A stretch of DNA of 37,343 nt from Bacilli bacterium (GCA_045636525.1 JAZTXT010000040.1:1-37343); one strand, 5' to 3'; positions 1,996-11,683 are shown, counted from the first letter of the stretch. Numbers and translations are program-made. Notes: generated by a model from the sequence alone, not told the origin.

Positions 1996-2310
1996 TATTT
2001 TACATATAATAATCTTAAGGTGATTATATATGAATAATACTGAAGATAGAGAAGTCAAAACCGTTGTAATAGATCCAGGACATGGAGGTTCGGACGCAGG
2101 TGCTGTAGGAAATAATATATTAGAGAAAGATTATAATTTATTAATATTACAGTATATGTTTGATAGATTTAAAGAGCTGGGTATCCTCGTAGCGATTACA
2201 AGAGATTCAGATGTAACATTATCACCGACTGATAGAACAAATAGTATATTATCTAAGTTCGGTAATTCAAGTGATGTAATAGTAATATCAAATCACTTAA
2301 ATTCCGGAGG
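1996..2310 (+). repeat. Left copy of a 315-bp direct repeat (amidase promoter-proximal region, RBS and first 94 codons)
   Basis: Aligns colinearly with 11369-11683 without indels. I counted about 31 substitutions by hand (~90% identity). Similarity stops right after the shared ccggagg (2304-2310 / 11677-11683). Confidence 0.85.
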
Positions 2311-2344
2311 TAGGGTAAGTAAAATTGCAATGGATGAAATATAA
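2030..2344 (+). pseudogene. Truncated N-acetylmuramoyl-L-alanine amidase (N-terminal 94 codons, then 10 unrelated codons and a stop)
   Basis: MNNTEDREVKTVVIDPGHGGSDAGAVGNN... matches the N-terminus of the intact amidase at 11403..12770 (9 aa differences in 94). It then diverges (RVSKIAMDEI*) and lacks the rest of the Amidase_3 domain and all LysM repeats. Confidence 0.8.
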
Positions 2345-2397
2345 GGTGCATAACTTCGTAAGCTCCTTGAATTATCGGCAAAATTTAATATTAGTTC

Positions 2398-2425
2398 TTG
2401 CTTTTTTATAAAAAATGTATATAAT
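2398..2425 (+). promoter_or_regulatory. Predicted sigma-A promoter driving the RT leader
   Basis: TTGCTT (2398-2403), a 16-nt spacer, then TATAAT (2420-2425). The predicted transcription start (TSS) is near 2432-2434. The same TTGCTT/TATAAT pair is predicted upstream of rnj. Confidence 0.5.
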
Positions 2426-8342: not shown

Positions 8343-11313
8343 TTTCTTTAAAGAAAGAAAAGACTATCAAAGATATATTATTGATTATTTAGTTAATGAA
8401 AATAAATTTATTGAACGTTATGACAATCAAGGACATTTTAATCCAATATATGCTATGGATACAGAACTTGTAATAAACTTTTTAGAGGAAACACAGCCAG
8501 ACAAAATGGAACAAATTAGAAAGATACATGATAATGCAAATGAACTGATTATTAAAAGAATTAATGCTGAAATAACAAAGTCTGATAGTAGTCTTATACA
8601 AAGGTTAAAAAAAGGTGTATATTTTGATAATAATATAAAATTAGACTTAATGTATGATAAGCCAGCAACAACTTTTAATGAAGAATTAAATGAACAATAT
8701 CATAAAAATATTTTTTCCGTTATGGAAGAGGTACATTATAAAAAAGATGATAAAGATAGAATTGATTTAGTAATTTTCTTAAATGGTATTGCAATTATTA
8801 CAATAGAATTAAAAAGTAATCAATCAGTTCAAAATTATGAAAATGCCATTTTTCAATATAAAAATGACAGAGATGCAACAAGTAGATTACTATCATTTAA
8901 ATTTGGTGCATTAGTAAATTTTGCTATGGATACAAAAGAAGTATATATGTGTACTAAATTATGTGGCAAATCATCATATTTTTTACCATTTAATAAGGGA
9001 ACTGAAAATGGTGGAAAAGGTAATCCGCATAATGATAATGGATTAAATGTATCCTATATGTGGGAAGATATATTAACAAAAGATACATTATTATATTTAA
9101 TTAAAAACTTTATATATGTAGAAAAAGAAGAGGAAGAAGATCCTAAAACAGGAAAATTAAGAATAAAAGAAAATCTAATTTTTCCAAGATATCATCAACT
9201 AGATGCAATAAGAAATTTAATAGATGATATAGCAATTAATAAAACATCTAAAAATTATTTAATTGAACATAGTGCAGGTTCTGGAAAAACCAAGACAATT
9301 GCATGGTTATCTCATAGACTACAATCATTACATGATAAAGACGAAAATAATATATTTGATTCTGTGTTAATAATTACTGATAGAATAGTAGTTGACCAAC
9401 AATTACAAGCAGCAATAAAAGCAATAGACCATAAAGCGGGATTAATAAAAGTAATGGATGAAGATTGTACTTCAACTGATCTAGGTGATGCACTAAAAAG
9501 TAATACTAAAATTATAGTTTCTACAATTCAAAAATTTAGATATATTTTAGATGAAACAAAAAATATATTAAATAAAAAATTTGCAATAATTATAGATGAA
9601 GCCCATTCATCAACATCTGGAAAAAATATGGCAGCGGTTACTGAAGTTTTGTCTGACAATGAAGATATGGATGGTGATTCAGTAGAAGATTTAATTATTG
9701 ATGAGATAACTAGTCAAGGAAAACAAAAAAATATTTCTATGATTGCATTTACTGCTACACCCAAAAAACAAACACTTCAATTATTTGGCAATTTAAATAA
9801 AGATGGAAAGCCAGCTCCTTTTCATGTATATGGAATGAAACAAGCAATTCAAGAAGAATTTATAATTGATGTATTAACAAATTATACAACCTACAAAACG
9901 TTTTATGAAGTCCATAAGAAAATGGAAGAAAATCCAAAGGTATTCTCAAGTGTTGTAAAAAGAAAAATTAATAGATTTGTAGATATACATCCTACTAATA
10001 TTGGTCAAAAAGTTGAAATAATTGTTGAGCATTTTAGAAATTGTATTATGAGAGAACTAGGAGGAAAAGCAAAAGCAATGGTTGTTACTTCATTAAGGGA
10101 ATCTGCAGTAAGATACAGAAATGAATTTGAAAGATATATAAAAGAACATAATTATGAAGATATAAAGGCATTAGTTGCGTTTTCTGGAAAAGTAACAGTT
10201 GATGGAAAGGAATATAGTGAAGTAGGAATAAATAATATTCCTGAAAATGCATTAAAAAAAGAATTTGATAAAGATGATTATCAAGTATTATTAGTTGCTA
10301 ATAAATATCAAACAGGTTTTGATCAGCCTAAATTAGTAGCCATGTACATAGATAAAAAATTAAGTGGAATAGCTGCGGTTCAAACATTATCAAGATTAAA
10401 TAGAATTTGTCCACCTTACAATAAACAGACATTTATATTAGATTTTAAAAATTCTTATGAAGAAATAAAAAAATCTTTTGCACCTTATTATGATGGAACA
10501 ATCTTATCTGAAAGTGTTAATCCAGAATCAGTGTATAATCTTATAGATAAAATAGACGCATATAATTTTATGGATTTTGGAGATGTTGAAGAGTTTAATA
10601 GACTTGCGTATAAACAAAGGAAAACTATTAATGATAAATTAAAAATGGAAAGTTTAGTTGATAGAGCTCTATCAAAAATAAAGAAGAGAGACAATCAAGA
10701 ACAATTGGAAATAAAGAAAAATATATCAAGCTTTAATAAATTCTATAGATTTATCATTCAAGCAACAGCTTTTGAAGATGTTGACTTACACAAAAAATAC
10801 AATTATTTAACTGTTTTATATAAAGAATTAGACGTAACAGGAATTAAAATAGACTTTAATGTAGTACAAGCAGTAGAAATTTCACATTTTGAACAAAGGA
10901 AAACAGGCGAATATATAATAGATGATGTGAATTCATCAATTGTTGCAGAACCTGAAATAAAATATGGTAATCCAAGAGTAGTATCTGTTGAATTAGAACA
11001 AAAGAGAAGATTGTCTGAAATTATTGAAGAAATAAACCTTGAAAAAGGCGTAAATATAGATCCGGATTTGGCATTTTCATCATTAGAACAAATAAAGGAT
11101 ATATTAATGAACGATGAAAAATTAAAAATAAGTGCAATTACAAATCCATATAGTGAGTTTAGATTTTCTTATTACAGAGGAGTAAATGAAGCACTTGAAG
11201 ATGGATATGAACATAACAAAGAATTATATAAATTATTATTAGATGATGAGGAAGCAAAAAAACGTATACTTGGAATTTATATGGAAGAAATATATAAAAA
11301 ATTAACCAAATAA
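8335..11313 (+). CDS. hsdR: Type I R-M restriction (helicase-nuclease) subunit
   Basis: The N-terminal PD-(D/E)xK-like motif DLVIFLNGIAIITIELK is present. SF2 motifs are SAGSGKT, IIDEAHSS, FTATP, QTGFDQP and QTLSRLNR. Confidence 0.9.
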   Translation: MDNFFKERKDYQRYIIDYLVNENKFIERYDNQGHFNPIYAMDTELVINFLEETQPDKMEQIRKIHDNANELIIKRINAEITKSDSSLIQRLKKGVYFDNNIKLDLMYDKPATTFNEELNEQYHKNIFSVMEEVHYKKDDKDRIDLVIFLNGIAIITIELKSNQSVQNYENAIFQYKNDRDATSRLLSFKFGALVNFAMDTKEVYMCTKLCGKSSYFLPFNKGTENGGKGNPHNDNGLNVSYMWEDILTKDTLLYLIKNFIYVEKEEEEDPKTGKLRIKENLIFPRYHQLDAIRNLIDDIAINKTSKNYLIEHSAGSGKTKTIAWLSHRLQSLHDKDENNIFDSVLIITDRIVVDQQLQAAIKAIDHKAGLIKVMDEDCTSTDLGDALKSNTKIIVSTIQKFRYILDETKNILNKKFAIIIDEAHSSTSGKNMAAVTEVLSDNEDMDGDSVEDLIIDEITSQGKQKNISMIAFTATPKKQTLQLFGNLNKDGKPAPFHVYGMKQAIQEEFIIDVLTNYTTYKTFYEVHKKMEENPKVFSSVVKRKINRFVDIHPTNIGQKVEIIVEHFRNCIMRELGGKAKAMVVTSLRESAVRYRNEFERYIKEHNYEDIKALVAFSGKVTVDGKEYSEVGINNIPENALKKEFDKDDYQVLLVANKYQTGFDQPKLVAMYIDKKLSGIAAVQTLSRLNRICPPYNKQTFILDFKNSYEEIKKSFAPYYDGTILSESVNPESVYNLIDKIDAYNFMDFGDVEEFNRLAYKQRKTINDKLKMESLVDRALSKIKKRDNQEQLEIKKNISSFNKFYRFIIQATAFEDVDLHKKYNYLTVLYKELDVTGIKIDFNVVQAVEISHFEQRKTGEYIIDDVNSSIVAEPEIKYGNPRVVSVELEQKRRLSEIIEEINLEKGVNIDPDLAFSSLEQIKDILMNDEKLKISAITNPYSEFRFSYYRGVNEALEDGYEHNKELYKLLLDDEEAKKRILGIYMEEIYKKLTK

Positions 11314-11368
11314 AAAACCAAATAGATTAAATAAGTTTACTGTATAAATATAAATTAACCAAATCAAC

Positions 11369-11683
11369 TATTTCACATATAATAATCTGAAGGTGATTAT
11401 ATATGAATAATACTGAAGATAGAGCTACTAAAAGTGTTGTAATTGATCCAGGTCATGGAGGTTCGGATGCGGGTGCTGTAGGAAATAATATGTTAGAGAA
11501 AGATTATAATTTATTAATATCGCAGTATATGTTTGATAGATTTAAAGAACTAGGTATCCCTGTAGCTATTACAAGAAATTCAGATGTGACATTATCTCCA
11601 ACTGATAGAACAAATAGCATATTATCTAAGTTTGGTAATTCAAGTGATGTAATAGTAATATCTAATCATGTAAATGCCGGAGG
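11369..11683 (+). repeat. Right copy of the 315-bp direct repeat (promoter-proximal region + first 94 codons of the intact amidase)
   Basis: See 1996-2310. Confidence 0.85.

Follow-up and report, generated by a model that had tools for sequence, protein, structure and literature searches.

How does a defence island come to lie between two copies of the 5' end of one gene, with the gene itself still whole? The question is raised by a 37,343-nt stretch of DNA from a Bacilli bacterium (GCA_045636525.1, JAZTXT010000040.1; hereafter the window, meaning the stretch at its full length), in which a reverse transcriptase (RT) of the DRT2 class and a Type I restriction-modification (R-M) system are located between a truncated and an intact copy of an N-acetylmuramoyl-L-alanine amidase gene. 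Our conclusion is that the island is probably the grounded left-hand part of a large serine recombinase (LSR) element in the amidase gene, which would have become whole again through a second promoter and 5' copy. The window was compared with related loci (L numbers) and related proteins (P numbers); relatives of the amidase were sought in GTDB genomes, JGI metagenomes and a large protein collection, and the genomes and metagenomes yielded 160 amidase loci. The parts of the island and its flanks described below lie on the plus strand, except for the right junction, which is given without strand.

Positions 1996-2311 and 11369-11684 align without gaps and differ at 32 of 316 sites (89.9% identity), in agreement with the first-pass annotation of this DNA, which had counted about 31 substitutions by hand between gap-free repeats starting at 1996 and 11369. 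An independent repeat finder run over the whole window returned the pair 1977-2276 / 11350-11649 at 88%, and a repeat search revealed no third copy in the 37 kb. Among the 94 shared codons nine differ at the protein level, as had been noted, with 4, 5 and 21 differences at the three codon positions (NG86: dN=0.049, dS=0.41, dN/dS=0.12). Both copies lose similarity past CCGGAGG(T/A), the abrupt end described previously. The left copy is a 104-aa open reading frame (ORF; 2030-2344) consisting of 94 amidase codons and 10 foreign codons from the element arm before its stop, and looks like a decaying pseudogene; the right one opens an intact protein of 455 aa (11403-12770), in which an Amidase_3 domain is combined with five LysM repeats, so that ORF and Pfam analyses agree with the annotation on both counts. 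The annotation had also described the repeat as 34 nt of upstream sequence, a ribosome-binding site (RBS) and 94 codons; the RBS and codons stand, but the upstream extent does not, because weaker similarity between the copies reaches to about -53 and covers a near-consensus promoter, so that the duplicated unit is promoter, RBS and 94 codons, rather than a 34-nt leader. On the left, promoter and leader occupy 1977-2029, with a -35 box TTAACA (1982-1987), a -10 box TATAAT (2005-2010) and the RBS AAGGTGAT; this TTAACA-N17-TATAAT site (1982-2010) fits 11 of 12 consensus positions and is the best such match in 1900-4800. The block is kept in the intact alleles of L180 and L182 and belongs to repeat family D2. 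On the right they occupy 11350-11402, with TTAACC at 11355-11360 and TATAAT at 11378-11383 (TTAACC-N17-TATAAT, 11355-11383), and this block, too, precedes the intact alleles of L180 and L182.

The 3' end of the repeat coincides with a break that recurs in the relatives. The amidase is intact and single in 135 of the 160 loci, and in 21 the gene body from G95 on (GEGAEVIYAL) is preceded by unrelated DNA, with the break at the same nucleotide as the end of the window repeat (...GGAGGT|GG...). The earlier proposal that the island entered the 5' part of the amidase gene is therefore upheld. The foreign ends at these split genes fall into at least four sequence families, and an LSR gene (Resolvase, Recombinase and Zn_ribbon_recom domains, 515-553 aa) adjoins the right junction in L022, L023, L025, L029, L147, L149-L156 and L159. 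L152/L153 (a 9.6-kb element), L155 (5.7 kb) and L176 (15 kb) each reveal the two junctions, and the partial contigs L169 and L170 together show the same element family. In two-ended elements the attachment (att) arms are short imperfect inverted repeats around the break without amidase homology (for example TACACAATGA-N20-TCATTGTGTA and CTACATTCT-N24-AGAATGTAG), and the amidase is left split, without a second 5' copy. LSRs act on two short sites, attP and attB, and excision requires a directionality factor (for these and their general properties see PMC12286644 and PMC10083194). These loci show LSR elements sitting at a predicted short attB within amidase codon 94 (...AAT NCC GGA GGT|GGC GAA...) in a clade of uncultured gut Bacilli, and the 3' end of the window repeat appears to be the attB crossover site, its dinucleotide being deduced from arm symmetry.

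In the window, the amidase-side arm runs to ...TTCCGGAGGT (2311), and an element-side P' arm, AGGGTAAGTAAAATTGCAATGGATGA..., starts at 2312. Positions 2291-2375 (the junction and 64 nt of element arm) are 89.5% identical to the attL of L169, and the window P' arm and the L170 P arm together make up an imperfect inverted repeat (TCATC..TTTTCCTTCC | GGTAAGTAAAA..GATGA). The attP of an L170-type LSR was reconstructed as ...TCATCTCAAGTTTTCCTTCCGGAGGTAGGGTAAGTAAAATTGCAATGGATGA..., with window 11660-11700 as the amidase attB region. The window thus combines insertion at an LSR attB with a matching element arm, which identifies 2290-2375 as the predicted attL of an LSR insertion; the intact amidase holds an unoccupied attB at about 11669-11690. 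An exact search with the P' arm gave one chance match in an unrelated genome among GTDB representatives and none in IMG/VR viral contigs; the match in L169 was reached via relatives of hsdR.

The cargo points to the same source. The R-M module starts with a small MazE/AbrB-type (SpoVT-AbrB) DNA-binding protein ahead of hsdM (4664-4927; Pfam MazE_antitoxin, 8e-13), a gene that also precedes hsdM in L169, L171, L173 and L176. It is followed by the methyltransferase HsdM (4927-7017, 696 aa; Pfam N6_Mtase/HsdM_N, PADLOC MTase_I 3.5e-228), whose gene is 94.5% identical in nucleotide sequence to that of L169, the specificity subunit HsdS (7020-8342, 440 aa; Pfam Methylase_S, PADLOC Specificity_I), and the restriction subunit HsdR (8335-11313, 992 aa; Pfam and PADLOC). 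All three subunits are thus present, adjacent and full-length, HsdM and HsdR being equal in length to their relatives, and HsdS having 440 aa versus 405-443 aa. The target-recognition regions of HsdS differ from those of relatives, with patchy nucleotide similarity over about 7100-8150. HsdR is 91-92% identical in amino acids to P0001-P0013, which lie inside LSR elements in split amidases, upstream of the LSR module, and MazE-hsdMSR as a whole is 90-94% identical to L169/L170 at the nucleotide level. Loci L169-L172 have the layout of a truncated Amidase_3 ORF, cargo and MazE-hsdM-hsdS-hsdR; beyond the same HsdR, L170 goes on to a 536-aa LSR, attR and the amidase's LysM part, and L176 has the full arrangement on one contig. 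All close hsdR relatives on long enough contigs (L170, L174 and L176) continue into the LSR module, L174 entering the LSR gene, and the tails of L171 and L172 match the stretch ahead of the LSR gene in L176 and L023. We also considered a donor region upstream of an intact amidase as the source of the R-M module, an idea suggested by Type I R-M genes in that position in L019 and L067, and rejected it, since all close MazE-hsdMSR relatives sit in LSR elements, right before the LSR module.

The RT (2704-4101, 465 aa) is a single-domain protein that matches the PADLOC Drt2 profile over residues 13-460 (1.2e-122) and Pfam RVT_1, and carries an intact YxDD motif (YSDD), which places it in the DRT2 class. 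In DRT2 systems a structured upstream non-coding RNA serves as the template for rolling-circle cDNA (the neo gene). Upstream of the RT gene, 2392-2703 holds a promoter-like TTGCTT..TATAAT and a conserved putative template RNA: 2411-2703 (about 290 nt) is about 95% or more identical to L162/L163, versus 87% for the RT gene, as expected if this region encodes the template. An Rfam scan of 1-13300, this region included, matched no family. The length of stop-free head-to-tail concatemers was rejected as evidence for a neo template; the maximum was 171 nt, and 17 of 100 shuffled sequences equalled it. The DRT2 module (2411-4155) is 84% (amino acids) and 87% (nucleotides) identical to that of L162/L163, where it lies directly right of an amidase attL, with the LSR gene of L162 8 kb downstream. 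Between the two modules is a non-coding joint (4179-4651), in which no ORF reaches 60 aa and a terminator-like hairpin occupies 4521-4537; it is 71% identical to L169 1395-1880, a stretch that holds a 99-aa gene in L169, and DRT2 takes the place of the Metallophos/YobI-ATPase cargo of that locus. As attL, R-M genes, DRT2 and the 4179-4651 joint all match LSR-element relatives, the DNA from 2312 to about 11344 appears to be a mosaic member of the L169/L170 element family, and DRT2 and MazE-HsdMSR are shown by these comparisons to be typical cargo of what we take to be amidase LSR elements.

The other end of the island looks quite different. At the right junction (11314-11350) an element tail, which shares the motif AGTTTACTGT with L176, runs to about 11344 and is followed by about six unassigned nucleotides and the amidase promoter block: homology to L176 stops at 11344, about 31 nt past the hsdR stop, and homology to L180-L183 starts at 11351. 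No sequence at the 11345-11350 join is common to the element tail and the promoter block. The regulatory small ORFs, LSR gene and attR that follow hsdR in relatives are missing: a tblastn search of the 37-kb window with the LSR of L022 gave no match, Pfam found no recombinase among the island ORFs, and there is no attR or P-arm-like sequence in the window, the amidase promoter following hsdR instead. No remnant of the 3' part of a first amidase was found between hsdR and that promoter. With neither LSR nor P arm, the island, as read from its sequence, cannot be expected to move by site-specific recombination. The first-pass picture of an RT/Type I R-M island devoid of recombinase thus holds, as does its suggestion that the integrase was lost, since the close relatives of both cargo modules sit in LSR-bearing elements.

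Where, then, do the two 5' copies come from? The intact window amidase is 97-98% identical over its full length to the intact proteins P0121-P0124, which derive from L180-L183 and whose DNA is about 91% identical to the window over amidase and RNase J. These four closest loci, which represent two amidase alleles, each have a single amidase with an unoccupied LSR site. Over the 316-nt segment the left and right copies are 89.9% identical to each other, L180 and L182 91.5%, L180 and the right copy 93.0%, and L180 and the left copy 91.1%, so the four are roughly equidistant and star-like. Since the copies are as far apart as intact alleles of different strains are, the two copies appear to be alleles of two lineages about 10% apart in one species complex, one of which has since decayed as a pseudogene. 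The earlier statement that they diverged as functional genes, and not as a decaying local duplication, is supported by this distance and by the dN/dS. The longest private branch is that of the left copy (14 private sites versus 8 in the right copy), and the S40L and P53L changes of the left copy, at sites invariant in 79 relatives, fit later decay. An attempt to pick the resident copy from site patterns was dropped, given the star-like alleles and the 14 versus 8 unique sites. A fixed recombination site at the promoter edge was likewise rejected, as the four alleles have no one break nucleotide in common; L180 and L182 share a few extra bases there.

Alternative cargo between the same kind of repeats, which the first-pass annotation had named as something to look for, is found in L016. 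This locus has the same architecture with another attL (of the L155 type) and other cargo (AbiE, PRiA4_ORF3 and SWIM); its repeat is 360 bp long at 97.5% identity, and cargo and promoter join at about -76. L007 has the mirror arrangement: after an intact amidase come 2.5 kb of cargo, then an attR arm of canonical form, and last a 3' remnant that has decayed. The element cargo gene found in L004 (95.9% identical in nucleotides to L162) stops 9 nt short of the block upstream of the amidase, at -129. Joins between cargo and promoter therefore lie at -53 in the window, about -76 in L016 and -129 in L004, with no fixed outer boundary, and the att regions of complete recombinase-bearing copies (L152/L153, L155, L176, L169/L170) hold no duplicated amidase segment. 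Variable joins, together with restoration on either side of the gene, argue for homologous plus illegitimate recombination. A built-in gene-restoring att site seems to be absent, because complete elements lack amidase sequence and the join positions differ. The window itself has the marks of an illegitimate join, with one end in homology, the other non-homologous, and two alleles involved: the join is without shared sequence, join positions vary, and the copies are 10% apart at a dN/dS of 0.12. Weak amidase-like matches upstream of the gene in L030, L031, L033, L036, L039, L045 and L057 were examined as decayed 5' copies and rejected, as they turned out to be CwlD-like paralogues of full length. 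Downstream of the intact gene in L016 there is also a 162-nt fragment of the amidase body (L016:13123-13280, 87% identical to 10409-10570), which hints that more than one rearrangement may have taken place at that locus.

The sequence of events that we favour would have begun with an element carrying DRT2 and Type I R-M genes splitting the amidase at the codon-94 attB. General recombination between this occupied allele and an unoccupied one could then have produced the join, with one crossover in the amidase or in flanking homology, and an illegitimate join a short distance upstream of the promoter as the other. This may have proceeded by homology-facilitated illegitimate recombination, or by Campbell-type insertion-duplication of an aberrantly excised circle, and survivors would be restricted to products with an intact, promoter-driven amidase. 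The outcome would be an amidase predicted to be functional again, a defence cargo that is kept but immobile, an intact attB once more available, and a left copy reduced to a promoter-bearing pseudogene reading into the island. Several points weigh against this reading. The strain or species of the window is in no collection searched and the closest amidase DNA is 91% identical, so there is no before/after pair. The LSR matching the window P' arm was pieced together from two contigs (L169 and L170) with identical HsdR, and arm symmetry is the basis for the crossover dinucleotide. Homology-facilitated illegitimate recombination is rare where it was measured (PMC5361080, PMC3240628), and no DNA-uptake route, be it competence or another, is established for these bacteria. 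If the window is a metagenome assembly, its 11345-11350 join stands without read verification. Finally, a route through tandem paralogues followed by deletion would yield the same end product, although it is less likely, because the closest loci hold a single amidase.

The first-pass annotation had preferred a mobile unit that brings its own diverged 5' end and expression signals and so restores the gene at each insertion, the integrase having been lost or movement being purely homologous. Such a unit, with the amidase promoter and 5' end in its attachment region, would leave exactly the architecture of the window; L016 has this architecture with other cargo, and identical runs of up to 35 nt between the 316-bp repeats could support RecA-mediated excision and re-insertion. 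Nevertheless we regard it as unlikely. Complete relatives with the same cargo modules and P' arm have LSRs, short arms free of amidase sequence and a split gene. From case to case the duplicated segment has a different 5' edge (-53, about -76 and -129), and the copies in L016 are 97.5% identical versus 90% in the window, which speaks for separate events rather than one conserved module. Moreover, a circle carrying amidase-core-P' would present a site of the attL type, and LSRs do not recombine such a site with attB (PMC12286644). The related notion of a mirror image of classical 3'-end/tRNA integration fails too, in that the second 5' copy stands in the place of the recombinase module and attR and joins at differing positions.

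A local origin would dispense with DNA uptake altogether: with two tandem amidase paralogues and an LSR element in the upstream one, a deletion removing the LSR, attR, the 3' part of the first copy and the spacer up to the promoter of the second would give the observed structure. Tandem amidase paralogues do exist in L073 and L076, and low dN/dS also fits two functional paralogues. However, those of L076 are far more diverged from each other, a single amidase is present in all four closest loci (L180-L183, 98% aa) and in 135 of 160 overall, the stretch from hsdR to the promoter holds no remains of the 3' part of a first copy, and the distance between the copies is the ordinary distance between alleles of different strains, so we give this scenario little credence. 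Least probable of all, and by our estimate very improbable, is a chimeric contig assembled from a strain with the full LSR element and one with an empty site. The relatives are all metagenome-derived, and occupied and empty-site strains co-exist in such samples, yet the 11345-11350 join holds no shared sequence that could mislead a k-mer assembler, analogous structures occur in independent assemblies (L016, L007 and L004), and the island genes are all intact and full-length compared with relatives. Thus, it appears that the grounding of an LSR element, with repair of the amidase by a second allele, best accounts for the island.

The annotation had further pointed to empty sites, in the form of a single intact amidase directly after the gene at 1492-1956. 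Unoccupied LSR sites do occur in the intact amidases of L180-L183 (98% aa, about 91% nt, in related lineages), but the layout with that gene does not, other defence genes being found upstream. In all relatives variable DNA with many defence genes lies directly upstream of the amidase: two EcoRI-methylase-like genes and GmrSD/HNH are found there in L180, and an Eco57I-like gene in L182. These genes differ from those in the left flank of the window. Part of the amidase-upstream cargo is common to LSR elements or to the L016 island, and the upstream island of L180 and the attL-flanked island of L016 have a 519-aa gene in common (71% nt).

The left flank of the window (1-1956) is accessory DNA with a 3' fragment of a Fic gene (199-531), a T5orf172 gene (541-1206) and a gene with HTH and DnaA_N domains (1492-1956; all by Pfam). 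Positions 1-519 are 84-85% identical in nucleotides to the Fic gene directly upstream of MazE-hsdM in the LSR elements of L173 and L176, so that the left flank probably is element-type cargo as well. The T5orf172/GIY-YIG-like protein has hundreds of homologues at 80-86%, on contigs of up to 1 Mb; in two contexts examined its gene lies at the end of R-M clusters in tyrosine-integrase islands, and it may be a common companion of R-M systems. The search for an older amidase 5' copy through the context of T5orf172 was uninformative, the homologues being in unrelated tyrosine-integrase R-M islands, and an exact-sequence look-up of the T5orf172 protein and the truncated amidase product of the window found neither on record. 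An intergenic repeat of about 47 nt with an internal palindrome (..CCCTTCGAGCCTAAGGTCTCTCTGGGATTTT..) occurs at 1231-1277, 15068-15114 and 20516-20562; it resembles a REP- or terminator-like element, and a similar sequence is present in L180.

Tentatively, one may imagine a ratchet, in which the amidase is split time and again by LSR elements, the gene is restored through recombination with an unoccupied allele, which strands the cargo and regenerates attB, and successive rounds stack defence systems upstream or downstream. We consider this possible but doubtful. Earlier rounds would fit the Fic flank of the window, the cargo of L004 and the 519-aa gene of L180 and L016, and the Fic flank in particular looks compatible with repeated delivery and grounding. 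If true, the ratchet would explain the hypervariable defence hotspot at the amidase across the clade.

Other loci add to the picture of the amidase as an LSR target. L043 and L129 (9800-10100 in both) hold a second LSR family, with about 32% identity to the others, whose end is separated by about 30 nt from the amidase homology, which begins at codon ~16 (..P|GHGG..); the amidase gene therefore appears to have at least two distinct LSR attB sites (codons ~16 and 94), both in conserved motifs. In L078 (3792-12019) the amidase body ends at about residue 277, and there is an LSR gene at 10233-11723 with a LysM fragment beyond it at 11747-12019, so there may be a third insertion site within the LysM repeats. 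In L026 (1403-2527) the right element arm gives an in-frame ATG (ATGCCTACATTCTACGACTTCGGGGGT|GGC...), for which reason the split gene could encode a predicted 374-aa protein with LysM repeats and without the N-terminal Amidase_3 part; L154 has the same P arm. In L147 (1-10003) a single attR has upstream of it two LSR genes (1816-3456 and 7440-9017) as well as internal sequences resembling the P' arm (at 1005 and 4611), which suggests tandem or nested elements at one amidase site.

As for the host, the nearest relatives are metagenome-assembled genomes of uncultured low-GC gut Bacilli ('Tenericutes', CAG:302-like, also termed RF39-like), in which the synteny of amidase and RNase J is found. To the right of the island lie RNase J, a CAAX protease, an ABC-F protein and nusA/infB, and no tRNA genes were found at the island. 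The search of GTDB genomes and JGI metagenomes gave amidase relatives of at most 83% aa identity; the large protein collection holds amidases at 97-98% aa, but their DNA is just 91% identical.

What do these findings mean? The Amidase_3-LysM gene of RF39-like gut Bacilli is a new hotspot, a landing site for diverse LSR elements whose defence cargo includes DRT2, Type I and II R-M, AbiE, ApeA-like and other systems. In several independent genomes the cargo appears to have been fixed as a chromosomal defence island with the target gene kept, a partial copy of the target gene replacing the recombinase end. If recurrent, this would link site-specific delivery to homologous and illegitimate recombination in the formation of defence hotspots. 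The amidase LSR elements are also a source of natural attB/attP pairs for new LSRs. The combination of grounding and repair, its recurrence, and the amidase hotspot are apparently not described in the literature searched, and each step rests on known mechanisms.

Gene-splitting LSR elements are well known from the skin element (SpoIVCA) in sigK and SPbeta (SprA) in spsM of B. subtilis, and from the A118-like prophage in comK of Listeria. Like these, the LSR element of the window's relatives splits a conserved gene at a short site (about 40-50 bp), with inverted-repeat arms and a tiny core. Unlike in those systems, where the gene becomes whole only by excision through the LSR and a directionality factor, the gene of the window is whole with the cargo retained and with LSR and attR gone; the target, an Amidase_3-LysM gene of RF39-like gut Bacilli, and the cargo, DRT2 and Type I R-M, are different as well. 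Classical islands and prophages with a tyrosine integrase carry the 3' end of a tRNA or protein gene in their attP, and integration restores the target. As in those elements, a partial gene duplicate flanks the window island and the target gene is predicted to be functional. There, however, the duplicate is part of the att site and the substrate of the integrase, whereas here it is missing from complete elements, comprises a 5' end together with the promoter, has no fixed outer edge, and is acted on by no integrase.

Homology-facilitated illegitimate recombination was proposed for the orphan arrays of Rhs, contact-dependent inhibition (CDI) and type VI secretion system (T6SS) loci (PMC5361080), and its rarity has been measured (PMC3240628). 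The window resembles Rhs and CDI toxin tips and the T6SS effector-immunity arrays of V. cholerae in having a homologous anchor, an illegitimate other end and an orphan fragment beside a functional copy, and here, too, repeated rounds could build arrays. It differs from them in that those systems displace toxin 3' ends downstream, whereas in the window a 5' end and promoter are displaced upstream of a housekeeping-type amidase, with element cargo trapped in between. In Campbell-type insertion-duplication and lambda dgal-type heterogenotes, aberrant excision is followed by homologous integration, and a single-crossover circle with an internal or 5' fragment gives, as in the window, a truncated copy, an insert and an intact promoter-driven copy; for the window this route would require a hypothetical circle and transfer vehicle. 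Finally, the variable, defence-rich DNA upstream of the amidase is akin to the defence-island hotspots known between core genes. What sets the amidase locus apart from such hotspots in general is that a concrete point of entry, an LSR attB in the flanking core gene, and a probable route to fixation can both be read from its sequence.

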